Source: an uncultured virus (IMG/VR IMGVR_UViG_2630968395_000002)
Lineage: Duplodnaviria; Heunggongvirae; Uroviricota; Caudoviricetes
IMG/VR virus record: IMGVR_UViG_2630968395_000002
Reading direction: 5' to 3' (one strand)
Length of the DNA stretch: 64,000 nucleotides
Part shown: positions 10,532 through 33,867 of the stretch, one piece after another
How positions within the stretch are numbered: position 1 is the stretch's first letter
Layout: each line of letters opens with the position of its first letter
Made by a program: the position numbers and the translations under genes
Notes under the pieces: generated by a model
Told to the model about the DNA's origin: nothing
Database searches by the model: none
Seen by the model: the letters and a program-made list of their open reading frames with translations, nothing else

Positions 10532-11020
10532 TTATGGCATCAGGCATAATTCGCGCTCGACTTCACGGCGATTCACTAACCCCTTCCAGACCTTGCCACC
10601 TGCCTTAATCCATCTGCGGAGCTCATCGCACGCGCCAGAAGTGTCGCCACGGTTGAGCTTTTTCACCATGGTTGAATGGGTCATTGCAGTAATACCAACG
10701 TTGTAGCCAAATGATGCCAATGCGGCTTTGCGGAAATCAGGCATTGGAACGTTAACGATGCGGTCAATGGTGGCAAATACGGGGATCAGATCTTGGTGTA
10801 GCAAAGCATCACATTCAGCATCGCTATAACGTTTGCTGGGAATAATATCTTTGCCGGTATGACCATCGCATACCGTTAGCACGCCAACCACATCACGATA
10901 AGGGGTATATTCGCGCCCTTCCAGACCATCGCTGCCGCCCACCATGGCGATTGCTATTGCCATTGCACCGCCGATTGCCGCACCCATGACTTTCTTGCGC
11001 AACGCGGGGGACATTGCCAT
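10532..11020 (-). CDS. R: SAR endolysin (GH24 lysozyme, phage 21 R-like)
   Basis: Ala/Gly-rich SAR N-terminus; E-8-D-5-T triad EGREYTPYRDVVGVLT. Confidence 0.93.
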   Translation of the reverse strand: MAMSPALRKKVMGAAIGGAMAIAIAMVGGSDGLEGREYTPYRDVVGVLTVCDGHTGKDIIPSKRYSDAECDALLHQDLIPVFATIDRIVNVPMPDFRKAALASFGYNVGITAMTHSTMVKKLNRGDTSGACDELRRWIKAGGKVWKGLVNRREVERELCLMP

Positions 11021-11232
11021 TATTCCCCCTTCGCCGCTTTCCGCTTATCTTCGCGCACCTTGAAATATAGGTTGGTTAGGAATGTTAGGAAAGCAAACAT
11101 CAAGCTACCCAGCACACCAATAGCCGCCCATTGCTCAGGGGCAAATCCATTCAGTAATTGTTTAAACCAAAACAGTGCGCCGCCACCGCTCGCGGTATAA
11201 GAGATACCGGTTGTGAGCCTCTCCATTTTCAT
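11020..11232 (-). CDS. S: Pinholin (phage 21 S family) with Met-Lys-Met dual start
   Basis: [12 protein letters not shown]...[13 protein letters not shown]...LTNLYFK. Confidence 0.92.
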
Positions 11233-11258
11233 GCTCCACCTCCCCGGCTTGGGGAAAT

Positions 11259-11291
11259 AAAAAAGCCTGCTGGGCGAACCATGCAGGCTTT
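11259..11291 (-). terminator. tR'2 terminator
   Basis: AAAGCCTGC...GCAGGCTTT + TTT on minus strand. Confidence 0.75.
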
Positions 11292-11324
11292 GGGTGTAGT
11301 CAGGACTGACCGGAACTGACCAAT

Positions 11325-11358
11325 AAAAAACCGGAGCAGCTTTTAAGCATACTCCGGC
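11325..11358 (-). terminator. tR'1 terminator
   Basis: GCCGGAG...CTCCGGT + TTTTT on minus strand. Confidence 0.75.
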
Positions 11359-11397
11359 ATCTTTGTGTAATTTAGCGCGTTAATGATGTAGGGTCAA
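11359..11397 (-). promoter_or_regulatory. Late promoter PR' with a sigma-dependent pause-like element
   Basis: TTGACC-17-TAAATT then AAAGAT, directly after the Q stop; compare lambda PR' TTGACT-17-TAAATT...AACGAT. Confidence 0.8.
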
Positions 11398-11404
11398 TCA
11401 TTGG

Positions 11405-12214
11405 TCAAAAGTCTTTTTCTAGCTGAATTCTTTCAATTAAAACCTCACCAGCACTCGATTCTTCAACATATAGCCAATGCATACATTCTTTAACCAGAGG
11501 CACATATTGCGCCGCCCAATCCCCACCGGATATCTCAGCCCCTATGATACCCATAGATTTGCGCAGGTGTTCCATTGTAGGCGGTATACGGCCACTGCCG
11601 CCGCACTCGTTGCATATTTCGGGATGAGGCCGCAGGGTTTTACCGGCACCGTGACAACGGGGGCAGACTTGCTTTATCGCCGCCTGATGATTAGCCCACG
11701 CCCGCAGTGCACCACGTTCTGTTTTGATTTTAGACTGAAGGGTTTTTATTTCGTCTGCCAGTAATGCGATAGTGCCATCATCAAGTGCCTGCGCTTTATC
11801 TCTTTCCAGTAATTTGATTTGCTGCTGGAGTCCATCAACGACTTTTCTGGTGATACCTGTACGGGAGCCGTAACGACGCAGTAAAGTGGCAATTTGCTCT
11901 ACCTGCGCCGGAAGGTTTCTATCCAATACCATATTAAGTGCCAACTGGCAGGCAGCAATAGCTCGCGCTGGATGTGGTCGCTTATGCAACCACCCACCTA
12001 TAACCGCCCGTAAGCGCTGCTCGGCTTGGCAGTCATTACGGTATTTGGTCATCAAGATATCGAAGCCAATGGGATGTTGGTGCTGGCAGGTGGCGAAAGT
12101 CCCTAATATCTGGTCTTTGGTCAGAACGGCACGACCCCGGCCAATATTCAGCGATTCAATGCTGACGCAGCGCGGATCGTGCATTTTAATAAGTTGTTCA
12201 ATTGCAGTGGTCAT
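11405..12214 (-). CDS. Q: Late antitermination protein Q (zinc-finger type)
   Basis: CPRCHGAG...CNECGGSG zinc finger; directly upstream of PR' and lysis genes. Confidence 0.8.
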   Translation of the reverse strand: MTTAIEQLIKMHDPRCVSIESLNIGRGRAVLTKDQILGTFATCQHQHPIGFDILMTKYRNDCQAEQRLRAVIGGWLHKRPHPARAIAACQLALNMVLDRNLPAQVEQIATLLRRYGSRTGITRKVVDGLQQQIKLLERDKAQALDDGTIALLADEIKTLQSKIKTERGALRAWANHQAAIKQVCPRCHGAGKTLRPHPEICNECGGSGRIPPTMEHLRKSMGIIGAEISGGDWAAQYVPLVKECMHWLYVEESSAGEVLIERIQLEKDF

Positions 12215-12219
12215 ATTGG

Positions 12220-12254
12220 TCAGTCCTGTGTTTTAAATTCACAGGACTGATTTT
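12220..12254 (+). terminator. 11-bp hairpin covering the Q RBS; plus-strand terminator of a putative anti-Q RNA
   Basis: TCAGTCCTGTG-TTTTAAATT-CACAGGACTGA + TTTT. Confidence 0.6.
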
Positions 12255-12525: not shown

Positions 12526-12984
12526 TTAACCCCCAAGGTATTTGCCATTTACTAAGTAAGAAATAATAGCACCTTTAGCACTTAAGAAACTGTAGGAGAC
12601 ATCTACTTTGTAACCTATGTCGCCAAGTTTCGATAACCAACAATTCTGATTATTATTTACATGTCCCTTGCTACTCTTCATCTCTATCCACAACCCCGCA
12701 TACCCACCGCGCGGCAGCGCCAGAAACAAATCTGGTACGCCTTTCCTCAAACCTAGCCGCTTGGCATCCCTCGCCGCCTTTGGTCCACGTTTCCCTTCAT
12801 TGGGTATATGGATCAGATAATCCCCGATACAAATACCATCGATAACGGTTTTATCTGCCCACTCAATCAGCGCTGCCTGTTCTTCGGTTTCTGCCTGGTG
12901 GTTAACCTTGTGAACCGTTCCATTTCGTACTTCCAGCTTGGCTTTTGTTCGAACAAGGTCAATGGCATCAATTTTATTTATCAA
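12526..12984 (-). CDS. VRR-NUC domain nuclease/resolvase
   Basis: HIPNEG...GVPDLFL...LWIEMK PD-(D/E)xK pattern. Confidence 0.88.
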   Translation of the reverse strand: MINKIDAIDLVRTKAKLEVRNGTVHKVNHQAETEEQAALIEWADKTVIDGICIGDYLIHIPNEGKRGPKAARDAKRLGLRKGVPDLFLALPRGGYAGLWIEMKSSKGHVNNNQNCWLSKLGDIGYKVDVSYSFLSAKGAIISYLVNGKYLGG

Positions 12985-13916
12985 ATTTTCGTCAGTTTAT
13001 CGTCTAATAGATAGTTATATTTTTCTGGAAGGAGAGCAAATTCGCCCCAACCCAAACCTGCCAAACACAAACCAGTCCCACTCTTTTCAACTATCCCATA
13101 CATAATAATGTAGCGTCCCTGGCTATCAGTTCGGATCCCTTTATCTTGAGCATCTTTATTTTCTTGCTTAAAATAAAAATCAGAGTAATTGTCATTTCTT
13201 GGCCAATTCAATCGAGTCATCCGTATTGAGTGATCCAAAGGTTTTTTACTCCAACTACTTAATATTTTTCCAAAATATAGCCTTGGTGAATCAGTAATAT
13301 CTTTAATCACTTTTATATCAACCAACAATCTGTCAAGACGTTCCGCATTTTTTTCACCAGGTAAAACAAAGAACTTATAGTAATTATTGTCAAAATTCCG
13401 ACAAAAACCTGCGACTGTAGTTATTACATTTGGCAAAGAAAAAGACTCACCTGTATGCCTGCCAATAGCAACTTCCGACAAACCACCATCGATATCTTCT
13501 AAATAGTTTTGATCGTAAATTCCGATTTCAGACTTTTTTATTTCAGGGCGATCTGTCATAAATGCTTTCACAATTGTCAATTGATCATCTGAAATCGCTT
13601 TTTTAGCTTCTTCTTCGTTTAAATATCTTTTCCCTTCAGCTGGTTTAGAACGCAAAAAACAAGGTACATCACGAAAAGAACGTAGATGAGCAAAACTGGC
13701 GTTTCGACCATTTGTTGTCGTATCCTTATGTTTCGGCCTTCTAGTCAGTGGTGTAAAGCATTCTGGGCAGAAAATAGCTTGATCCATCTCTAGGGTAAAT
13801 TCACTAGGTAGAACTCTTCGCCCCTGAGACTTTAAAACTGGAATTGAGTGTATCGTCCTTTTCCATGTTGAATGAAAATAGGCAAACTTGATTCTAAAGG
13901 TGCTTTGATCTTCCAT
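12981..13916 (-). CDS. AT-rich accessory protein with an N-terminal CxxC...H...C zinc finger
   Basis: ~311 aa; IFCPECFTPL...ASFAH...PC; composition differs from flanking nin genes. Confidence 0.75.
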   Translation of the reverse strand: MEDQSTFRIKFAYFHSTWKRTIHSIPVLKSQGRRVLPSEFTLEMDQAIFCPECFTPLTRRPKHKDTTTNGRNASFAHLRSFRDVPCFLRSKPAEGKRYLNEEEAKKAISDDQLTIVKAFMTDRPEIKKSEIGIYDQNYLEDIDGGLSEVAIGRHTGESFSLPNVITTVAGFCRNFDNNYYKFFVLPGEKNAERLDRLLVDIKVIKDITDSPRLYFGKILSSWSKKPLDHSIRMTRLNWPRNDNYSDFYFKQENKDAQDKGIRTDSQGRYIIMYGIVEKSGTGLCLAGLGWGEFALLPEKYNYLLDDKLTKI

Positions 13917-13987
13917 GCATTCCACCAAATTGGTTTAAATATAAAGTAACTCTTATCAATTATTTTAAGTTCGTTCAATGACACACA

Positions 13988-14309: not shown

Positions 14310-14957
14310 TCAATACTCCAGCAACCGGTTAACTGCCTGTTCCATCTCATACTCGTCATCAAAGTGCTGGCCTAATGTCTCATTCCAGATAACACCGGCC
14401 ACCCCTTTATAAATTCGGTCAAAAACGCCCTGATCCATATTCACGAACGCAATACTCCAGCGCTGCTTCAATGTGCCGCCCTCTGGGTTGGGCATCAGGT
14501 CATAGAATCCGGCTTTGATCATGACGTGGTTGAAATAAGCGGAGTCCGTCTTTACCGCCTCTCCATCAAACCTTTTCTGGCGCTGCCTGATTACTCTGTC
14601 TAGCACCGCCTGAGCGATAGACTTTGTCACCTTCTCATAGAGTTCCGGATCTCCTGCAGCGCTGCCCACAGCTTTAGCTACCTCGTGAGCTATCCACTCT
14701 TCAGGTGCGCTAACAAAGGTCCAATCCGGTACCCAATAAGAGAACCCCAGCTCGAGCAGTTTCCAGAACTTACGGTGATGCTTCAGGTTGCGCCGGTCAC
14801 CAATTGGGCTCATTGAAATTGGAGTGCCCGCAGGCACCCCCTTCATAGTTTCCCGATCATGGTCAGTGGCGTACTTGATTCCACCCCCAGGTAACAGCAC
14901 GCCCAATACTTCAGTCTTTTTCTTTCTCGGGGACTTAGTTCGCGGTGCTGTTGTCAT
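14310..14957 (-). CDS. DUF1367 family nin-region protein
   Basis: RNLKHHRKFWKLL...SIAFVNMDQ motifs. Confidence 0.8.
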   Translation of the reverse strand: MTTAPRTKSPRKKKTEVLGVLLPGGGIKYATDHDRETMKGVPAGTPISMSPIGDRRNLKHHRKFWKLLELGFSYWVPDWTFVSAPEEWIAHEVAKAVGSAAGDPELYEKVTKSIAQAVLDRVIRQRQKRFDGEAVKTDSAYFNHVMIKAGFYDLMPNPEGGTLKQRWSIAFVNMDQGVFDRIYKGVAGVIWNETLGQHFDDEYEMEQAVNRLLEY

Positions 14958-16699
14958 GCCGCCACCTCATCGCGATCTACACACATTTCTGGCAGATTGG
15001 CCCGAACCAGCGCTTCCGCAAATGGCGGTGGCACCGCATTACCACAGCGGGCTACCTGCTTATCTTTGGCGTATTTAGTACCGGTGTAATCGCGGTCGAT
15101 GATGTACCAGTTCGGGAAACCCTGCGCGGCGTAAAGCTCATGCGGCTGCAACATACGCATACCGATATCCACAATCTGATAATCAATGCCCTCGACCGTC
15201 ACCAGACCGAACCGGTCATTGGTGGTCACTGTGTGCAGGGGGCCATTCAGGCTAACACCCTCTTTCTCATTGCCGTAATACTTGAGTAAGAAAGCACGAA
15301 CCTCACCGATATGCAGACCACCGGCAGTGATTGTTGGCATTGGCTGGGTAACCTGCTGACCGTCTTTGCAAGTGCCGCGCAGCTTTATCAGGTTAGAAGT
15401 CACCAACGCATGATGATCAACCGTTGTCACTGTGTGGGCTGGCTGATTCAGATCAGCGCCTGAGCCGGTATAGTTGCCGCCGAAGTGTTTAGCCAGGAAT
15501 GCAGAAACAAGCCGAGACTTGCCACCTCCACCCGCTGTAATAGTACCGCTTGGATCATCAACCACATGCCCCACACTATTACCAAACTCACGAGCAATGA
15601 TCGGGGCGACAAGAAGGTGTTCAGCCTTACTAGTGATTGTCGTTAGTGGTTTACCCACTTCATACGCCATACGATCGCCACCAAAACCGGTTTGACCGAT
15701 ACGGGCTATGATTGGAGTGACCAATGAGAAGCCAGGCGTTTTGGTAATGGCCTGCAACGGATCAATTAATGGCTGCCCCCGGAAACAGTCATATGTAGTT
15801 TTACTGCTGGTGTGGTTACACTTCACGATAAACGGCGTGGGGTTATCCATAACGAAACGTTGAATGCCCCGCGCAATGCGTTTGAGGGTGTTCTCCGCTA
15901 GCGGTTTCTTGCGATCGAAAATACTCGGGCAAGGAATTGACCAATCAATACACTCGGCGGCGGTGCGCCACGGTTTACGGTGTCCGCTCTGAACTTCCAA
16001 TAATTTTGGATCGCCGTGAGTCGGCTCCGGCCACACTACTGGCAAACCATCACAACGCATTACCATAAAGAAGCGCTTTCTGATGGTTGGCGCACCATAA
16101 TCACTGGCCCGAAGTTCTTTGTGATCAACGACGTATCCCAAACCAGCCTGCAGTCGTTTAGCATCTATACTATTGATATCAATCCCTAAAACCTCGCAGC
16201 ACTCCTGTAACGCTGGATGTTCGGCATCAATACCCGTAGTCAGCATCGCTACAAATGCGGCGAATGTCTCACCCGCGCGGGCGGGATCGGGGTGTTCTGT
16301 GCCATCTTCGGCAGTCAGTAGCGGTCCCCACGTTTTAAACTCTTCCACATTTTCCAGCATCACTACTCGAGGCTTTTTCGCTAACCCCCAACGAATCAGT
16401 ATCCACGCTAAACCACGGATCTCTTTTTTAACTGGCTTACTGCCCTTCGCCTTACTGAAATGGCGGCAATCAGGGCTGAACCATGCAAGTCCGACAGGTC
16501 TGCCGGCGGTCGCGGCCACGGGGTCAATATCGAATACTGACTCACAATAATGCAGGGTGTCGGGGTGATTGGTGGTGTGCATGGCGATAGCATTCGGATC
16601 ATGATTGATGGCGATATCAACACTGCGCCCGGTTGCCATTTCGATCCCGGTAGAAGCCCCACCGCCACCAGCAAAATTATCTACGATGATCTCTTTCAT
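14954..16699 (-). CDS. DNA cytosine-C5 methyltransferase
   Basis: FAGGGG motif I, SPDC motif IV, ENV motif VI, RKRFF motif VIII, GNAV motif X. Confidence 0.95.
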   Translation of the reverse strand: MKEIIVDNFAGGGGASTGIEMATGRSVDIAINHDPNAIAMHTTNHPDTLHYCESVFDIDPVAATAGRPVGLAWFSPDCRHFSKAKGSKPVKKEIRGLAWILIRWGLAKKPRVVMLENVEEFKTWGPLLTAEDGTEHPDPARAGETFAAFVAMLTTGIDAEHPALQECCEVLGIDINSIDAKRLQAGLGYVVDHKELRASDYGAPTIRKRFFMVMRCDGLPVVWPEPTHGDPKLLEVQSGHRKPWRTAAECIDWSIPCPSIFDRKKPLAENTLKRIARGIQRFVMDNPTPFIVKCNHTSSKTTYDCFRGQPLIDPLQAITKTPGFSLVTPIIARIGQTGFGGDRMAYEVGKPLTTITSKAEHLLVAPIIAREFGNSVGHVVDDPSGTITAGGGGKSRLVSAFLAKHFGGNYTGSGADLNQPAHTVTTVDHHALVTSNLIKLRGTCKDGQQVTQPMPTITAGGLHIGEVRAFLLKYYGNEKEGVSLNGPLHTVTTNDRFGLVTVEGIDYQIVDIGMRMLQPHELYAAQGFPNWYIIDRDYTGTKYAKDKQVARCGNAVPPPFAEALVRANLPEMCVDRDEVAA

Positions 16700-17571
16700 G
16701 ATGTTGCTCCCATAGCGGCGGTGAGTGTTGTGGCGGCGGCAATGATGGCATCAGACGGAATACCGTCTAATTTCATACGGTTGATATTGCCTAAGATTTT
16801 ATGTTGCAGGTCGGCGGGTAATTCAGCGGCACCCGATATTTTGCTGAAATACAGATTTACTTCGACCGGCCAGACGGTGTTGCCAGTTTCCGGTACTGGA
16901 ATATTTTTCGGCTGGTTTTGTGGTATCAGGCGCTCAGCCTCTCTGCGGATCTGCGCTAAAAATGCCTCACCAGTGGCAAGTAATTGCTCACGGGTGATAT
17001 AGCTAATCGCAGGGCCACGCCATTCCTTATCGAAAATGGCAATAGCCGCACCAAAACCCGCATTGCAGGCAACTTGAGTGTTATCTTCGGGACGGAACCA
17101 AGCCGGTACTTCAAAGCCAATTCTGCCGCGAATGAATGCAATATGGTCTGCTTCTTCAGGCCACCACACCTCTGACGTTGCCGCTTTGGTCAAATAGACA
17201 TAGCGACCGCCGCGCTGCCGCATTTCGGAGGTATAAGCCATGATGTGCCGCATGCCAGTGATATATTGCCCTTCATGCTTTTTCGCCGTGCTGTAGGGAG
17301 GGTTAGCAAATGCAGCGCCATTCAACTCGGTCAGTTTCGTAGCCCAGTCTTGAGTGAGCGAGTTATCTTCCGCAGTGTAATAAGCGGGTGTTTTCGCATT
17401 CTCGCAATCACTGAACAGATCCAGAACTAACGGGCCAAACATCGCATTGATACCCCAAAACAAAGCATCTGGCGTGCGCCACTGGTCGCCAATTAATTTC
17501 AACTTATGTGTTGGGGCGGACTTGAGAGCGGCCAGATCATGAACATATTGGGTATTGGAGAAATCAATCAT
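16696..17571 (-). CDS. Phage N6-adenine DNA methyltransferase (phage Dam family)
   Basis: DQWRTP, LDLF, NPPYS, FIRGRIGF. Confidence 0.9.
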   Translation of the reverse strand: MIDFSNTQYVHDLAALKSAPTHKLKLIGDQWRTPDALFWGINAMFGPLVLDLFSDCENAKTPAYYTAEDNSLTQDWATKLTELNGAAFANPPYSTAKKHEGQYITGMRHIMAYTSEMRQRGGRYVYLTKAATSEVWWPEEADHIAFIRGRIGFEVPAWFRPEDNTQVACNAGFGAAIAIFDKEWRGPAISYITREQLLATGEAFLAQIRREAERLIPQNQPKNIPVPETGNTVWPVEVNLYFSKISGAAELPADLQHKILGNINRMKLDGIPSDAIIAAATTLTAAMGATS

Positions 17572-18494
17572 GCTGCACACCCCTTATTAATTGGATACGC
17601 AGATAAAATACTTTCGATACGAGCTGGAACCAGTTCAGCGTATGCTGGGTTCAATTCGCAAAGAATAGCTTTACGACCACTGCCGATAGCGACGCCAGCA
17701 GTCGTGCCACTACCACCGAATGGGTCCAAAATCACGCCACCAGTCGGACAACCAGCCAAAACACAAGGTTCAATTAGTGCTGGCGGGAAAGTAGCGAAAT
17801 GAGCTTCTTTGTAACCACGAGTGGCCACAGTCCAAACGTTGCGCTTTGCCCGCATACCATCAGAGACAGTATCTTTACGATCAGCACGATGGGTACCCAC
17901 ATTTTGCCCAGGTATAACTACCGCTCGCTTACTGTCTTCCCGCTTGAAGTTATCGCGGGCAGATATCCTGCCGCGATTTCTGTCACTCTTATCCATGCCA
18001 TGCCCAAAGCCGACGCCGGTATTTTTACCGCTGTAGACAGATGGTTCTCTAATTGCCTCATGATCGAAGTAATAGCTTTTCGACTTACTCAGCAAAAATA
18101 TATATTCGTGGGCTTTGGTACAGCGGTCACGCACGCTTTCTGGCATAGGATTGGATTTGTGCCAGATAATGTCTTGGCGAAGGATCCAACCGTCATTTTG
18201 TAACGCAAAGGCAAAACGCCATGGCATACCATTCAATTGCTTCCCTTTGTCCCAACTATCCCCCATGTTTACCCATAAAGTGCCATCATCACGAAGAACG
18301 CGGCGAACCTCACGAAACACCGCGACAAGCCGTTGAATAAACGCCGCAGGGCTTTCCTCTAAACCAATCTGCCCTTCAACACCATAATCACGTAGCCCAT
18401 AATATGGCGGGCTGGTAATGCAGCTATGAACGGACTGATCTGGCATTTTGCGCATTGAGTCTATGCAATCACCGATAAAAATCTGGTAACTCAT
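17568..18494 (-). CDS. N4-cytosine/N6-adenine DNA methyltransferase (beta class)
   Basis: TSPPY, HFATFP, LDPFGGSGTT. Confidence 0.93.
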   Translation of the reverse strand: MSYQIFIGDCIDSMRKMPDQSVHSCITSPPYYGLRDYGVEGQIGLEESPAAFIQRLVAVFREVRRVLRDDGTLWVNMGDSWDKGKQLNGMPWRFAFALQNDGWILRQDIIWHKSNPMPESVRDRCTKAHEYIFLLSKSKSYYFDHEAIREPSVYSGKNTGVGFGHGMDKSDRNRGRISARDNFKREDSKRAVVIPGQNVGTHRADRKDTVSDGMRAKRNVWTVATRGYKEAHFATFPPALIEPCVLAGCPTGGVILDPFGGSGTTAGVAIGSGRKAILCELNPAYAELVPARIESILSAYPINKGCAA

Positions 18495-18838
18495 TGCATG
18501 CCTCCTTGCGTGGTAGGAACCAGACGATAAAACCAAACCCGCTTGCCGCTATCATCGTTACGGACAATTTTGACCTGTTTAACCAACCCATGGCGGACAG
18601 GATTAATTTCACGCAGACGAGCACTTATAGCGGCCTGGGTATCACCTTCACCGGGGAACATCTGAGACATCAACTTTTCGAGTTCGCGCAGTGTCCGCCA
18701 ATCAGCACCACTTGCGGCGGTGATCACGCGGTTTAACTGGCTGTTTGCATCACTTATACGGCCAGCTAATTGCATGGATCTTACTGCGTTATTGATACCA
18801 ACCCTTTCGGCATTGGGTACGTGTGGTTTGATCACCAT
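18491..18838 (-). CDS. Hypothetical winged-HTH-like phage protein
   Basis: WRTLREL...AISARLRE...WFYRL; coupled to neighbours. Confidence 0.65.
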   Translation of the reverse strand: MVIKPHVPNAERVGINNAVRSMQLAGRISDANSQLNRVITAASGADWRTLRELEKLMSQMFPGEGDTQAAISARLREINPVRHGLVKQVKIVRNDDSGKRVWFYRLVPTTQGGMQ

Positions 18839-19974
18839 TACGCGCCCTCCCCAGCAAGCACTTCGCGGGTCCCGTCTGGTGCGGGTTGGGACACAATGCC
18901 TTCAGCCTGCATTCTTTCAATCAGCCATGCGGCACGGTTATAGCCAATACGGAGTTCACGCTGTAGCCCCGAAATTGAGGCTTTTCCTTTCGCCTTGGTG
19001 AAGTTCACTGCTTCTGGATAGCGATCATCATCGTCCCGTTCTACTCCATCCAAATCTACCCATGAACTGCTGGTTGCCTCGCCGCCCAGCGCATCCACTA
19101 GATGGGCAATCAGTGCGGCCAGTTCACCCGCCATCAAAATAAAATCGGCATCAAAACGCTGCGCGTAATCCTCGCGGTCGATATCGTCGTTCCGCTCCAG
19201 CAGCGTGGTGCTGTATTTCACTCTCTTCAGGCTGCCATCGTCGGACAGCATAAAGCTAATGCGCCCCTGCCACTCCAATGCCAACTTGGTCACCAGCTTA
19301 CCGGCGGCGATATGCCCACGGATCTCGTCACTGACTAAATCCTGATGTTTACTGCGCAGAATGCCGCCCTGCTCCAAAACGGCTTTAAGCTCGGCTTCTT
19401 CCTGTAAGATGAATCCCGCAGGCGCAGCGCCAGAGCGCAACCACTCGGTTAACGTCAGTTCAATCGGGGTCTCCAGTGTCAAAGGGACCACAGGCAGAGA
19501 ACCCATGGTTTTGCGCAGCAATGCCAACGCATTTTCAGCTTTCCGCGCGCTGGCAGCATCAATGATAATTAACCCGGCCCCTGCGTTAATCCAGATGGAT
19601 GTTGTAGAGTATTTGCTAAAGGCCCGAGGCAATAGAGTCTGGATAACTTCATCTTTCAGCGAGTCTTTTTCTGTTTTTTTCAGTTTACGATGTTGCTCTT
19701 GCTCCAAACGCTCAACTTTACTCGCCAACTCACGAGCGATAACCGGGGCGGGTAAATCCTTTTTTTCACACTGCAATGTGATAAGGATTTGCTTGTTAGC
19801 CACATGCGCAAGCGTTGCGCTTTCGTTACCCATTGGCGATATCCAACCGGTTTTCGCCATATCCTGACTGCCGCACGGTGTGAATGCGAACTGCGCCATT
19901 TGCTCTTCCAAATCAGCGAAAGAAACATCGCGAGATAATTTGTAAATCAATACATTCTTGAAATTAATGCTCAT
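18838..19974 (-). CDS. rdgC: Recombination-associated RdgC with a C-terminal FtsK-gamma domain
   Basis: FKNVLIY...FTPCGSQD...GW RdgC N-terminus; [24 protein letters not shown]tsK-gamma. Confidence 0.9.
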
Positions 19975-19977
19975 TGG

Positions 19978-20754
19978 TCAGTCCTCGGTAATTTTATTAT
20001 TTTGCAAACCGTGGTCGGCGGTCTGCTGCAATGACTCTTGGTATTTGTGTTCCAGAGACGCTTGTAGCCTAATACTTTCATCACGCCATGTGCTTTCTCG
20101 CGCCTCCTGATCCTGCTTAATTCTCCCCTTCAGTTCGTCTAAAAATTGTCGTATTTTTGTGGGTACTTCATTCCCAGCCTTCCCCTTTTCTGGCAACAAC
20201 AACTGATACTTTTCGGCTTTAGGTCTGGGAAGCAATCCTGTTGTTACGGCCTGCTCAACGGTACGTTTTACTGTCTCTTTGTCCCATCCTTCAGACACTG
20301 ACCATGACGGTGATCGGCCTGTCCCTTGCGCTGCCTTAGCCAATCGTTCATAAGCAGCGATAAAAGCCATACGTGCGCCAATTTTGTCGCCCTCCTGCAT
20401 GATTGGCTGGGCAATACTCCATGCCTGGGCAATTTCATTCGTCCAAACCACGGTGTTAGCTTCATCTTGCGCGGGTAATGCCAATGCCCACGCCTCATTC
20501 GCTGAGAGCCAATCTGGTTTACCGTCAATATTTTGGATATTGCGGATAATATCGGCGGGCTTAGGTGAAAACCGGCCTTGTTCTGGATCTATCACCCAGT
20601 TGCTGAACGCTTGACGCACAGTTTCAATGTCGTATGGCAGTAAAGCATTCCAATAAATTTTTAGTACAGCCTTGGATCCGTCTTTGCCGTAGATCGCCAA
20701 AATAGCTTTCATGATCTCAGCAAATTCTCGTTTTTCAGTCTCTGCTTCCCGCAT
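19978..20754 (-). CDS. Replication protein P-like (helicase loader position)
   Basis: Follows O; GRFSPKPADII motif. Confidence 0.6.
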   Translation of the reverse strand: MREAETEKREFAEIMKAILAIYGKDGSKAVLKIYWNALLPYDIETVRQAFSNWVIDPEQGRFSPKPADIIRNIQNIDGKPDWLSANEAWALALPAQDEANTVVWTNEIAQAWSIAQPIMQEGDKIGARMAFIAAYERLAKAAQGTGRSPSWSVSEGWDKETVKRTVEQAVTTGLLPRPKAEKYQLLLPEKGKAGNEVPTKIRQFLDELKGRIKQDQEARESTWRDESIRLQASLEHKYQESLQQTADHGLQNNKITED

Positions 20755-21791: not shown

Positions 21792-22150
21792 TGGGATTTC
21801 TCCTGTCTGATGGGAAGCTCAGGCAGCCACTCAGGTACCGGCAGTCCGGCGAGTTTTAATTCGGCATGAACATGAACCAGCATGTCGGGAGCTTCGGCAA
21901 ACATCGCCAAAAATCCACGAATGGCGGCTACATTGGTTTCTACTGCGGGGTTGGATTCCAGCGCGTTGGCGGTACTTTTTATGGCCACTGCCTCGCTTTC
22001 TGTCCATCGGGTCTTAATCTGATCTTCACGCACGGTATGGAACGGTAAACCGTTCTTTCCCACCTTTTTGCGGGATAGCAACTCCCGCCGAACGTCAGAT
22101 GCTATCGCAGCCCCTGCCGTTATAGCGGCAGGTTGATAAATTGTGGTCAT
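21788..22150 (-). CDS. Hypothetical regulator in the cII position
   Basis: First gene after cro; preceded by the GAGGACTGACCAATG motif. Confidence 0.6.
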   Translation of the reverse strand: MTTIYQPAAITAGAAIASDVRRELLSRKKVGKNGLPFHTVREDQIKTRWTESEAVAIKSTANALESNPAVETNVAAIRGFLAMFAEAPDMLVHVHAELKLAGLPVPEWLPELPIRQEKSQ

Positions 22151-22167
22151 TGGTCAGTCCTCTATCT

Positions 22168-22413
22168 TTACTGATGAGCTGGTTTGGTCAGAACCAGGCT
22201 AAGATTTTCCGGGTTGCGGCCATAGTCGGCCGGGTTGTAGATGTATGGGATGTTAGAAGATAAATGACACAACAGAGCAATATCTTCGGGCACTCCTTGA
22301 GATCGCCACTTACCCACTGCCTGCCCGGTTCGTGACTTACCTTTTGCAGGAAATCGGCGGCCAATTTCCGCATTGCTTCCAATTTCAGTTTTCAAAATAT
22401 CATACAATTTCAT
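22168..22413 (-). CDS. cro: Cro-like HTH repressor
   Basis: GSNAEIGRRF...TGQAVGKW...GVP; divergent from cI; SD GAGGAGG. Confidence 0.8.
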   Translation of the reverse strand: MKLYDILKTEIGSNAEIGRRFPAKGKSRTGQAVGKWRSQGVPEDIALLCHLSSNIPYIYNPADYGRNPENLSLVLTKPAHQ

Positions 22414-24011: not shown

Positions 24012-24129
24012 ACAGGTTAAGTGACACAAAACGGTCCGCGTGTACCGGTCACGGCTCAGCTAAACCACGAATTACCAGTGTGCCTTCCATGAGGGTATAG
24101 CGGTGATAGACACAACTGAGGACTGACCA

Positions 24130-24375
24130 ATGGCCACCACATCTCGTCAAAAACGTATGGCAAAAAAACGTAATGCCCATATCCAGGCACTGGCAAATCG
24201 GGGAACTAACCGTGTTGAAAGAGCAGTATTAGTGATGGTGCGGAGTAAACTGATACCGGATATGCCAGCCATCACCAACAAGTCCCGCACTTCAGCAGAT
24301 CCAGAGAAACGCATTGCAGCAGTTGCCCGCCAGAAGATGCGTGGTTGCAGTCAGTTACCTCGCGGCGTGCGTTAG
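24130..24375 (+). CDS. N: Early antiterminator N
   Basis: Arg/Lys-rich N-terminus; RVERA and ARQKMRG resemble lambda N RVESA and GRQKIKG; first PL gene. Confidence 0.8.
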   Translation: MATTSRQKRMAKKRNAHIQALANRGTNRVERAVLVMVRSKLIPDMPAITNKSRTSADPEKRIAAVARQKMRGCSQLPRGVR

Positions 24376-24459: not shown

Positions 24460-24729
24460 ATGAGCAAATTATCAGCAATTAACATGCAGCAGATTGAATC
24501 TTCCCAGATCCATAGCATCGGCCATGACTCGGTAAGTAACACTCTGGCGATTCGCTTTAAGTCGAAAGGTGAACCTGCTGCGCTCTATCACTACAAAAAT
24601 GTATCCGCTGATGAATACGCAGCGTTCTCTGGTGCCGAATCAATTGGCTCCCACTTCTACCGCAATATTAAAGCGGATACCGATCGTTATCCGTTCCAAC
24701 GCATTAACGAAAAGAAAGACGACGAATAA
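24460..24729 (+). CDS. KTSC domain protein
   Basis: ESSQIHSIGHD...LAIRF...YHYKNV...AESIGSHFYRNIK. Confidence 0.88.
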   Translation: MSKLSAINMQQIESSQIHSIGHDSVSNTLAIRFKSKGEPAALYHYKNVSADEYAAFSGAESIGSHFYRNIKADTDRYPFQRINEKKDDE

Positions 24730-24776
24730 GTGGTTTTACCGCTGCCCCTGTACGCGGGGGCTTCGGCAAAACCACT
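24729..24776 (+). repeat. Structured intergenic element, copy 1
   Basis: 48-nt long hairpin; homologous copy at 25261-25308. Confidence 0.7.
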
Positions 24777-25006: not shown

Positions 25007-25260
25007 ATGAGAACACGTTCCGTCATCTGACCTTAAAAACTAACCGCGCCACGGATGACGACCTTCTGGGACTACCGATATGAAAAAGATTTATTTAGGA
25101 AAAGTGTTTGTTCCCGGCGCTTCTACAGTTGGTTACGGTCGTGTTCGCATTCTTTCTCGCAAGGAAGTTGGGCATTTATCGTTTCGCCCTATCGCTGTTG
25201 CGGTTCACTGGTGTTTGAGCGGTTACATTACTAACGAATGCGTAACTGAATCCTTCAGTA

Positions 25261-25308
25261 AGTGATTTTACTGCTGCCCTTGCGCGCGAGGGCTTCGGCA
25301 AGTTCACT
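25261..25308 (+). repeat. Structured intergenic element, copy 2
   Basis: Same fold as 24729-24776 with compensatory changes. Confidence 0.7.
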
Positions 25309-26473: not shown

Positions 26474-26582
26474 ATCCCAGGAGTGCGGGACCAACCGCAA
26501 ACCTACTGAGGACTGAACAATAACCACGAGGATTATTATCAGCGTGGTTGAGTGACCAAACCCAACCATGGGAAAGCATACC

Positions 26583-26732: not shown

Positions 26733-26742
26733 GGACTGACCA

Positions 26743-27585
26743 ATGACCACTCAAGCAGTAACAACCAATCTTCCACCCGCAGTGGTGGGGTTGAATATTG
26801 ATGAACCCACCTGGAACGCACTGAAAAATAGTATTTACCCTGGCGCTAAAGATGATTCAGTCATCATGGCGGTGAGTTATTGCCGCGCCCGCCAGTTAGA
26901 TCCGCTGATGAAACCCGTGCATTTAGTGCCAATGAGCGTGAAAGATGCACTAACCGGTAAATATGAAATGCGCGATGTGGTGATGCCCGGCGTTGGCTTA
27001 TATCGCATACAGGCTGACCGTTCCGGTAACTATGCCGGAGCGCAAGAGCCAGAATTTGGCCCAGATCTGACGCAAGCCTTTAATGGAGTAGAAATCACTT
27101 TCCCTCAGTGGTGCAAATACACACTGAGCAAACTCATGCCTAACGGCACTATCGTGGAATTCAGCGCAAAAGAGTACTGGCTGGAAAACTATGCCACCGC
27201 GGGTCGTGATACCCAGGCACCCAATGCTATGTGGAAAAAGCGGCCTTATGGGCAATTAGCCAAATGTGCCGAAGCGCAGGCATTGCGTAAAGGGTGGCCA
27301 GAAATTGGTCAGCAGCCAACAGCGGAAGAGATGGAGGGTAAAAGTCTTGATGTGACTGAAACTAAAGAACACAGCCAGGGCAGCCAACAACCTACCCAAC
27401 CGCAAGCACTACCAGAATATAGCGCGGAACAATTTCAACGCGCTCTGGCTGATTGGACAACGCTGATCAATAAGGGCAAGAAAACCGCTACGCAAATCAT
27501 CAACACCATCGAAAGTAAATACACCCTCACCCCGGCACAAATTAAAACAATCGAACATCTGGAGGCAGAAGATGCAAATCATTAA
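26743..27585 (+). CDS. bet: Phage single-strand annealing recombinase Bet
   Basis: LDPLMKPVHLV...YRIQA...MWKKRPYGQLAKCAEAQALRK. Confidence 0.9.
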   Translation: MTTQAVTTNLPPAVVGLNIDEPTWNALKNSIYPGAKDDSVIMAVSYCRARQLDPLMKPVHLVPMSVKDALTGKYEMRDVVMPGVGLYRIQADRSGNYAGAQEPEFGPDLTQAFNGVEITFPQWCKYTLSKLMPNGTIVEFSAKEYWLENYATAGRDTQAPNAMWKKRPYGQLAKCAEAQALRKGWPEIGQQPTAEEMEGKSLDVTETKEHSQGSQQPTQPQALPEYSAEQFQRALADWTTLINKGKKTATQIINTIESKYTLTPAQIKTIEHLEAEDANH

Positions 27586-33547: not shown

Positions 33548-33651
33548 TATTCAATAGATGTATCACTAAAACATAGCCCCTTACCACCACAGACCAAACG
33601 ACCATAATAGGGCGCAGCATCGTTGCGTCCTTTCCTACTGAGGAAAGACCA

Positions 33652-33867
33652 ATGACCAAAATACTGACTCGCACTGAATTAGAAGAGATCACTGGTTTTG
33701 TACAACCCAAGAAACAGTGTGAATGCTTACGTGAAAGTGGCATTTTTTTCATCGAGCGTAAAGATGGTAGACCTAGCACAACATGGGCGCATGTTGAGCA
33801 CCCTATCTCTTCCCGCAATATCATTCATAGCATGCCTGAAGACCAACCTAATTATGGGGCTATTTAA
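33652..33867 (+). CDS. xis: Excisionase-like DUF4224 protein
   Basis: LTRTELEEITG...KQCECLRESGIFF...DGRP; directly upstream of int. Confidence 0.85.
   Translation: MTKILTRTELEEITGFVQPKKQCECLRESGIFFIERKDGRPSTTWAHVEHPISSRNIIHSMPEDQPNYGAI

Follow-up and report, generated by a model that had tools for sequence, protein, structure and literature searches.

We analyzed a 64,000-nucleotide (nt) stretch of DNA, here called the window, from an uncultured virus of the Caudoviricetes (IMG/VR record IMGVR_UViG_2630968395_000002). A lambdoid prophage occupies approximately positions 1 to 35000 of the window, with host DNA adjoining. The closest relatives of the prophage are Yersinia proviruses, and a Yersinia similis contig encodes a Q-like protein 99% identical to its own. 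Rightward and late genes are on the minus strand, and the repressor, the N-position gene, the recombination genes, and the integrase are on the plus strand. Our subject is the leader that lies between the Q-like late regulator gene and the late lysis operon, together with a short sequence, the tag, that is found at the start codons of several early genes. Part of the leader, which we call the anti-tag, is complementary to the tag. An earlier note on this DNA had described the leader as a tandem antisense to a start-site motif and had proposed that it silences early genes in trans. The features of the locus are listed below by position in the window.

11405-12214, minus strand: Q-like late regulator gene, 269 amino acids, TIGR02642 family, its own start tagged
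11369-11397, minus strand: sigma-70-type late promoter at the PR' position (TTGACC, 17 nt, TAAATT; promoter scan 9/12)
11325-11358, minus strand: terminator hairpin 1 (tR'1) and U6 run, predicted fold (hairpin 11358-11330, U-run 11330-11325)
11324-11301, minus strand: 24-nt anti-tag tandem, AUUGGUCAGUUCC-GGUCAGUCCUG, between the two terminators
11313-11324, minus strand: anti-tag copy 1, AUUGGUCAGUUC, then one C; 5' arm of the middle hairpin
11301-11311, minus strand: anti-tag copy 2, GGUCAGUCCUG, mostly inside the 12-nt loop of the middle hairpin
11297-11322, minus strand: middle hairpin, 7 bp (UGGUCAG/CUGACUA), with the 12-nt loop UUCCGGUCAGUC
11259-11291, minus strand: terminator hairpin 2 (tR'2) and U6 run, predicted fold (hairpin 11291-11262, U-run 11264-11259)
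11020-11232, minus strand: holin gene (Pfam Phage_holin_2_1, E 2.5e-29), first gene of the late lysis operon

Results

A late leader with antisense sequence between two predicted terminators

The anatomy claimed by the earlier note, a promoter followed by two terminators with antisense sequence between them, was confirmed by the sequence and by the predicted fold. Relative to the promoter, the predicted terminators lie at approximately +5 to +38 and approximately +72 to +104, and their hairpins, taken alone, fold at -17.4 kcal/mol (hairpin 1) and -16.7 kcal/mol (hairpin 2). The 111-nt leader RNA as a whole is predicted to fold at -42.7 kcal/mol (z = -5.08), a value that none of 200 shuffles equaled. 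Opening the anti-tag within this fold would cost 3.65 kcal/mol for copy 1, 6.45 kcal/mol for copy 2, and 7.87 kcal/mol for both.

The leader resembled no catalogued RNA in the collections searched. No Rfam family, C4 included, was found at gathering score in the leader or elsewhere in the window, and the Rfam matches that appeared at the E-value level within 11200-11450 scored only 13 to 17 bits versus cutoffs of 45 to 108, such that none was meaningful. Moreover, a blastn search of 50,697 GenBank phage records found no match to the leader at E values up to 0.01. Run X1, the kind of which we guess to be RNA, contains one 210-nt contig that covers 11329-11538 and ends within the U-run of hairpin 1. 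None of the four public runs, X1 among them, had an assembled contig on 10400-11328, and as they come from a single study at low depth, they are neutral on an anti-tag RNA.

A tag at the starts of early genes in the window

The 12-mer GGACTGACCAAT occurs in five exact copies in the window, all in the sense orientation and each abutting the ATG of an early gene. When up to two mismatches are allowed, there are 15 matches versus a shuffle mean of 4.32, and none of 100 shuffles reached 15. The tagged sites are as follows.

12215-12226, minus strand: tag at the Q-like gene, exact 12-mer with ATG directly after
19973-19984, minus strand: tag at rdgC, exact
22149-22160, minus strand: tag at the cII-position gene, exact
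24120-24131, plus strand: tag at the N-position gene, exact
26733-26744, plus strand: tag at recT, exact
33642-33653, plus strand: degenerate tag at the xis-position open reading frame (ORF), 2 mismatches, predicted duplex -20.6 kcal/mol

The targets named in the earlier note are thus borne out, with exact tags at Q, rdgC, the cII-position gene, the N-position gene, and recT and a two-mismatch version at the xis-position ORF. By simple arithmetic over the whole window and both strands, a 12-mer within one mismatch is expected approximately 0.3 times, and therefore the anti-tag in the leader is not there by chance.

Two further matches lie away from gene starts. At 26510-26521 (plus strand), a one-mismatch tag is followed by ATA rather than ATG and by no ORF, and related loci L027 and L030 have an ATG and a 30-amino-acid ORF at that place; the site looks like a dead gene start with a retained tag. 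At 15714-15725 (plus strand), a one-mismatch tag lies opposite a 581-amino-acid gene (14954-16699) and would read in the early mRNA as an anti-tag with a central mismatch. This inverted tag is common to the closest relatives (L006, L007, L009, and L053), and it may be due to chance, as approximately 0.3 such matches are expected per window. A small plus-strand ORF starting from the inverted tag in the leader was also considered and was rejected, as no start codon follows it.

Predicted pairing of the anti-tag with tagged starts

Copy 1 of the anti-tag is the complement of GGACTGACCAAT over 12 nt with one G:U pair, and copy 2 is the exact complement of CAGGACTGACC, the 11-nt site of Q, and of 10 nt of the GAGGACTGACC sites. 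The pairing lengths given by the earlier note, 12 nt with one G:U pair for copy 1 and 10 to 11 nt for copy 2, therefore hold. Copy 1 is predicted to form a duplex of -17.5 kcal/mol with each of the five tagged starts (next best start, -14.8; median, -6.8), and copy 2 is predicted to form duplexes of -20.4 to -22.3 kcal/mol (next best, -15.4), the strongest being that with Q. By function rather than homology, the leader is a candidate for the trans-acting RNAs directed against ribosome-binding sites (anti-RBS RNAs), in that its seed is complementary to several regions from the Shine-Dalgarno (SD) sequence to the AUG; in a short-seed duplex search with either copy, the five tagged starts were the top 5 of 331 ORF-start regions.

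The two leader copies match the two TGACCA repeats of the tag. On a target, UGGUCA of the tandem is predicted to pair with the start codon and codon 2, and GGUCAGUCC(UG) with the SD and spacer, with a small internal loop between the two parts. Such two-part duplexes are predicted at -27.6 kcal/mol for rdgC and at -26.8 to -30.2 kcal/mol for the other four exactly tagged genes. Predicted net binding is strongly favorable because the duplexes outweigh the cost of opening the free hairpin, at most 7.87 kcal/mol. The earlier note had raised the possibility that structure sequesters the segment. It is indeed predicted to be partly paired, but the balance of predicted binding is still favorable.

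Two other ways of scoring the pairing were discarded. A duplex search with the 38-nt linker, U-run included, gave long imperfect duplexes with spurious ORFs that scored like real targets. A count of the longest helix with G:U pairs allowed was insensitive, as shuffled linkers gave 13.5 start regions with helices of at least 10.

Conservation of the leader in relatives

Relatives were selected by their Q protein, which gave 47 viral loci (54 to 100% identity) and 11 genome loci (in Yersinia, Serratia, Brenneria, Pectobacterium, and Symbiopectobacterium), 58 in all. A strict pattern found the leader in 53 of the 58 loci, and the anti-tag was present within one mismatch in 51 of those 53. A looser pattern found the leader in L055 and L059, and no leader was found in the DNA examined for L044, L062, and L063, with Q being partial in the last two. 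Across loci L006 to L063, various insertions of genes separate the late promoter from the Q-like gene in many relatives, and at least four different first genes follow the leader, which itself is nearly constant.

The 28 unique leaders comprise 13 of the tandem type seen in the window and 15 with a single copy, and most relatives carry a single, unpaired anti-tag copy. The single-copy anti-tag reads AUUGGUCAGUCC with UC, U, or A after it. The form found in the Pectobacterium group is exactly complementary to 16 nt, UUGAGGACUGACCAAU, and Serratia locus L056 also shows a single unpaired complement of the tag. Lying unpaired between the two terminators, the single-copy anti-tag would cost 0.73 to 1.54 kcal/mol to open. 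Among the 15 unique single-copy leaders, hairpin 1 varies in 14 of its 30 columns and hairpin 2 in 9 of its 24, whereas the anti-tag varies in only 1 of its 11, and this sole anti-tag change, C to U in L051, retains a G:U pair. The stem of hairpin 1 is preserved in relatives by paired changes (e.g., CCGGAG/CTCCGG versus CCGAGG/CCTCGG), and the -10 element and the transcribed AAAGAT.CCG element are conserved.

The Yersinia lineage of the window has the tandem form, whose two copies are in register with the UGACCA repeat inside the tag. When the 13 unique tandem leaders were folded singly, every one of them was predicted to form the middle hairpin. Its first pair is changed from U-A to G-C on both sides in L027, L030, and L055 (one double compensatory change), a G-C pair is changed to G-U in three other leaders, and no change breaks the stem. 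In the diverged tandem leaders, approximately six anti-tag positions differ, and the loop still shows UUGGUCA. A MAFFT alignment misplaces the 3' arm of the middle hairpin by one column in leaders of the L027 type and was not used for pair counts. We conclude that the leader feature is real, nonrandom, and conserved.

Conservation and distribution of the tag

The window and related loci provided 164 unique tag contexts, 135 of which had the usual spacing. The conserved tag block is A-GGACTGACCAATG-ACCA, and the cassette A-GGACUGACCAAUG-ACCA consists of the SD sequence GGA, a fixed spacer, the start codon, and the direct repeat UGACCA..UGACCA. In DNA terms, the internal direct repeat of the tag is TGACCA, 1 to 3 nt, and TGACCA. 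In the 135 contexts, the four nucleotides that follow the ATG, ACCA, are 82 to 92% conserved, though the search did not select for them. The three bases ahead of the block (positions -3 to -1) are mostly a TGA or TAA at which the upstream gene stops (64% of the 135 contexts have T at -3, and 97% have A at -1), and the gene upstream of rdgC in the window stops at a TGA within the tag. At the Q gene, the block GGACTGACCAA is invariant, although its distance to the ATG varies by 0 to 3 nt and it is preceded by 4 freely variable nt; selection there acts on the tag block itself.

Tagged genes belong to a small number of families: over 59 sources, the tag was found at Q in 54, at rdgC in 41, at the cII-position gene in 32, at the gene for a 144-amino-acid protein in 15, and at the gene for an 83-amino-acid protein in 9. 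The N-position gene was tagged in 5 sources and recT in 4, which were counted solely where the left operon was in range. In the 53 leader-bearing loci, 140 sense and 21 opposite-strand tag matches lie in 551,164 bp upstream of the leader, and none lies within one mismatch in the 473,980 bp of late region downstream of it. A cis target in the late operon was rejected for lack of any such match in this 474 kb of late DNA. Moreover, phages that differ in their immunity regions have an identical tag.

In the nearest host genome, G001 (4.9 Mb), all four exact 13-mers lie inside the prophage, and host targets were rejected, as no exact 13-mer lies outside it. In an order-wide pattern search, the exact 13-mer was present in 25 of 401 genomes and in more than one copy only in G001 (four), G351 (three), and G048 (two). 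The single matches of that search resemble those of the reversed-pattern control, and the sample is too sparse for co-occurrence. Scans of viral contigs with 14-mers of the tag and the anti-tag were also set aside: among the matches listed, most were metagenome derived and outside Q-related loci, and we read them as mainly chance.

Co-occurrence of the tag and the anti-tag was assessed in loci selected by rdgC, 76 of 79 of which were examined. All 33 tagged loci with at least 9 kb of downstream DNA also have the anti-tag leader. The 42 untagged loci, just 5 of them with enough flanking DNA, showed no such leader. More distant relatives were sought in a metagenome scan with the Q alignment, which gave 7 loci of 58 to 90% identity, and in a profile search, which gave 92 proteins of 37 to 92% identity, all but one at 48% or higher. 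The family is compact and the tag is uniform throughout; therefore, there is too little sequence divergence for covariation between tag and anti-tag to be read from it.

Other late promoter modules

The promoter and transcribed element of the leader (GCTAAATT, 3 to 4 nt, AAAGAT.CCG) recur two to three times per phage, each time followed directly by a terminator hairpin. The closest provirus record (L003:1505-1700 and L005:1501-1700) holds two further late modules, which map beyond the end of the window and which have one terminator each and no anti-tag. Thus, only the leader of the lysis operon has the linker and the second terminator. The linkers of other late modules differ, examples being ATGCACGAAATCTAGCC, ATACCACAAAATCAG, and ATTCCCTCAATTTG (L064 to L182). 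These phages seem to run several Q-dependent late operons.

Prophage setting

Over its full length, the Q-like protein belongs to NCBIfam TIGR02642 (435.8 bits versus a cutoff of 101.4), a family called antitermination protein in some sources although its function is unproven. Its residues 179 to 263 match PHROG 127, "anti-termination protein Q-like," at E 2.9e-12, a partial, C-terminal match, and no Pfam Q family matched the protein. The other genes of the prophage are as follows.

22168-22413, minus strand: cro-position gene
Minus strand: cII-position gene, 120 amino acids, no family match
Minus strand: replication genes, O-like and loader-like
Minus strand, in order after the replication genes: rdgC, three methyltransferase-like ORFs, nin-region genes, Q-like gene, holin gene, lysozyme gene
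18838-19974, minus strand: rdgC, encoding RdgC fused to a C-terminal FtsK-gamma DNA-binding domain
Plus strand: S24-type repressor, recT, YqaJ exonuclease, and integrase genes
Plus strand: N-position gene, 81 amino acids, arginine-rich N terminus, no family match
33652-33867, plus strand: xis-position ORF, 71 amino acids, directly upstream of the integrase gene

RdgC homologues of 70% identity or less, found in untagged phages and with a match ending near residue 300, apparently are without the FtsK-gamma extension. The three successive ORFs at 14954-18536 (minus strand; 581, 294, and 322 amino acids) are DNA methyltransferase-like by their translated motifs alone. In the nin region, a 315-amino-acid ORF (12981-13928, minus strand) has no Pfam or PHROG match and may be an inserted accessory gene. 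Finally, the leftward early operon on the plus strand contains two copies, 82% alike, of a 50-nt G+C-rich palindrome (24727-24776 and 25259-25308; repeat family D3), which look like candidates for terminator or processing hairpins.

Discussion

How the leader might act is suggested by where the anti-tag lies and by what it matches. We propose a tag/anti-tag RNA switch in lambdoid prophages that have a TIGR02642 (Q-like) late regulator. A tagged subset of early genes would share one private translation-initiation cassette, and every RNA that runs past terminator 1 would carry the anti-tag. Such RNAs would include all Q-modified late transcripts and, in the lysogen, a minority of read-through transcripts that would end at terminator 2 (approximately 105 nt in the window). 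The anti-tag would pair with the SD-to-AUG region of tagged mRNAs, and ribosome binding would be blocked. In the lineage of the window, the free RNA would display GGUCAGUC in the loop of its 7-bp hairpin and, on a target, would form a two-part duplex of 10 to 11 bp plus 6 bp, reaching from the SD to codon 3. The main effect would be Q-dependent shutoff of early genes, including negative feedback on Q, and a secondary effect would be to damp, at a low level, early genes that are leaky in the lysogen. Q-dependent shutoff is favored because the anti-tag lies behind terminator 1, and its synthesis should need Q, apart from basal read-through.

On balance, we lean toward the view that RNA running past terminator 1 blocks translation of the tagged early genes by way of a trans-acting anti-RBS seed. 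The sequences themselves, their complementarity, their distribution, and their conservation are matters of observation; from them we infer transcription past terminator 1, pairing in vivo, and an effect on translation. More tentatively, the whole might be a temporal switch made of RNA only, in which a private start tag would define the early regulon and the anti-tag would sit behind a Q-sensitive terminator. The onset of late transcription would then silence N, Q, and the recombination and replication-linked genes and feed back on Q, and lysogens might be cross-immune to heteroimmune relatives that share the tag. The general interpretation of the earlier note, silencing of early genes in trans, gains from the anatomy, the targets, the precedent discussed below, conservation across genera, the confinement of tags to early genes, and co-occurrence, and it loses something by the partial pairing of the antisense segment. 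The match of the tandem to the repeat inside the tag and the prevalence of single-copy leaders in relatives had escaped that note.

Several observations weigh against trans-acting silencing. Conservation is high throughout the leader module, the loop of hairpin 2 included, and therefore conservation of the anti-tag alone is weak evidence. L027, L030, and L055 have a degraded anti-tag though their phages keep tags. Tag and anti-tag are nearly invariant in the family, so there is no covariation between them; among tag variants, three substitutions are wobble compatible and two are disruptive, which gives no signal either way. Co-occurrence of tag and anti-tag is confounded by common descent, and the untagged rdgC loci are other phage types. 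The conserved ACCA after the AUG is not accounted for by the single-copy leaders. In the window, the anti-tag is predicted to be partly paired, with 8 nt in the loop and an opening cost of 3.65 to 7.87 kcal/mol. Terminator 1 looks strong (-17.4 kcal/mol and a U6 run), and therefore anti-tag RNA may be scarce when Q is absent. RNA across 11301-11324 is itself a prediction. Finally, tags coincide with homology breakpoints at 3.3 times the expectation, versus 1.7 times for other ORF starts, and they usually abut an upstream stop codon, which together with the breakpoint enrichment fits a role as a junction cassette.

The same pairing could have a different working form, one that the earlier note had offered alongside a late-to-early shutoff. 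Constitutive read-through from PR' that stops at terminator 2 would produce an Hfq-type small RNA (sRNA) in the lysogen, of approximately 105 nt in the window and approximately 85 nt in single-copy relatives, as a second layer of immunity that could extend to the silencing of incoming heteroimmune relatives with the same tag. The predicted architecture is sRNA-like (5' hairpin, U-rich stretch, unpaired seed, and terminator hairpin with a U tail), and the second terminator is confined to this leader, the two other late modules of the phage having one. The tag is identical across immunity types, so the RNA would act across them, and StxS is a precedent (PMC7547250). The anti-tag, however, comes after a strong terminator, such that the amount made without Q may be very small, and induction would be hampered if the translation of N and Q were repressed constitutively. 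We consider a dedicated lysogen sRNA unlikely.

Alternatively, the tag might be a junction cassette (stop, SD, spacer, and start) that serves translational coupling or efficiency or that provides homology for module exchange by RecT and YqaJ, in which case the copy in the leader would be a relic without functional pairing. The stop codon usual at -3 to -1 and the rdgC tag within which the upstream gene stops are in keeping with such a cassette, as are conservation that continues for 4 nt after the AUG, where the single-copy anti-tag does not reach, and the enrichment of breakpoints. Moreover, tagged genes sit at the recombination, N, cII, post-replication, and Q positions, which are classic lambdoid module borders. 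An inverted copy, however, would be useless for productive exchange, and the breakpoint enrichment may merely reflect a conserved island in diverged flanks. Nor would a relic be expected to stay less variable than the rest of the leader in five genera, to undergo duplication in register with the repeat inside the tag, or to gain a hairpin that is kept by compensatory change. We regard a junction cassette with a relic copy in the leader as somewhat less likely still than a lysogen sRNA, though it is the main rival that does not invoke RNA.

Tag and anti-tag might also be double-stranded DNA sites for a phage or host protein that recognizes TGACCA half-sites, for which orientation would be irrelevant. 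The tag does hold two such half-sites, and the tandem leader has a further pair in inverted orientation (TGGTCA and CGGTCA). Their spacing, however, is not constant, being 10 nt in the leader and 7, 8, or 9 nt in tags, the leaders of most relatives have one half-site, and no candidate protein was identified. Moreover, every gene-associated copy is in the sense orientation and in fixed register with the ATG, which argues for RNA or translation rather than DNA. We consider DNA sites very improbable. Equally improbable is action purely in cis, in which N-antiterminated PR transcripts carrying the tag of Q and, approximately 900 nt downstream, the anti-tag would fold back and limit Q translation: copy 2 has its best match in the Q site (11 nt exact, -22.3 kcal/mol) and Q is tagged in 54 of 59 sources, but the tags on the other operon (N-position gene and recT) and far upstream (rdgC and the cII-position gene) would be left unexplained, and folding back is compatible with silencing in trans rather than exclusive of it.

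The closest known counterpart of trans-acting silencing by the leader is, by position, the PR'-tR' leader RNA (StxS), by mechanism the c4 RNA, and for the tag the start-associated sequences (SAS) of mycobacteriophages. The 6S RNA of lambda is a short lambdoid transcript of the PR'-tR' kind. In Stx phages, a by-product of the PR' leader is the Hfq-bound sRNA StxS, which represses a phage transcript by pairing and has stx1 and host rpoS as targets (PMC7547250); the origin of StxS in the PR' leader was correctly given in the earlier note. Like StxS, the window leader lies downstream of the late promoter, between the Q-like and lysis genes, with predicted intrinsic terminators near the promoter. 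Unlike StxS, its predicted targets are the early genes of the phage itself, reached by a shared tag, and its seed lies behind the first terminator. The two also have no likeness in sequence, in that the leader had no blastn match in the 50,697 phage records and no Rfam family at gathering score.

The c4 RNA of P1 and P7 pairs in trans around a ribosome-binding site, and its complementary stretches are thought to be displayed in loops (PMC12197685). The tandem form in the window is likewise predicted to display its seed in a loop. Whereas c4 controls one operon, that of the antirepressor, and defines immunity, the window element has at least five predicted targets in both early operons and resides in a late leader.

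The SAS of cluster K mycobacteriophages are 13-bp asymmetric repeats lying no more than a few nucleotides from the start codon, at nonstructural genes only, nearly absent from host genomes, and kept across different gene families, and each of four SAS-bearing genomes has one inverted copy away from gene starts; their function is unexplained, and the authors allow an RNA or a protein partner (PMC3203893). The window tag is similarly short and asymmetric, lies at early-gene starts, is absent, as an exact 13-mer, from the nearest host genome outside the prophage, and has a lone inverted copy. It differs in sequence and hosts, and, compared by description, the two are of the same kind rather than the same family. 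The available portion of the SAS paper proposes no antisense partner (PMC3203893), whereas the inverted copy in the window has a defined place in the late leader. A search of the literature, with subscription journals outside its range, found nothing on this tag or on a late-leader anti-RBS RNA in prophages of Yersinia, Serratia, or Pectobacterium, and two 12-letter words occurred only in papers that, by title, are unrelated.

Shutoff of many early mRNAs at their ribosome-binding sites has a parallel in phage T4, in which RegA and RegB act late or in the middle period. RegA and RegB are proteins, a translational repressor and an endoribonuclease, and the candidate in the window is an RNA. Shutoff of early genes in lambdoid phages is usually ascribed to repression by Cro. 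If the leader acts as we propose, a late-leader RNA would add a posttranscriptional layer to early shutoff and a feedback loop on Q, and the short PR' leader RNA would have a function beyond the single case of StxS. It would also offer a candidate mechanism for start-associated tags, one that would explain the SAS of mycobacteriophages and their lone inverted copies. The hypothesis is directly testable, and the defined place of the inverted copy provides a testable mechanism. Ultimately, competition between prophages may be affected as well, since heteroimmune relatives share the tag.

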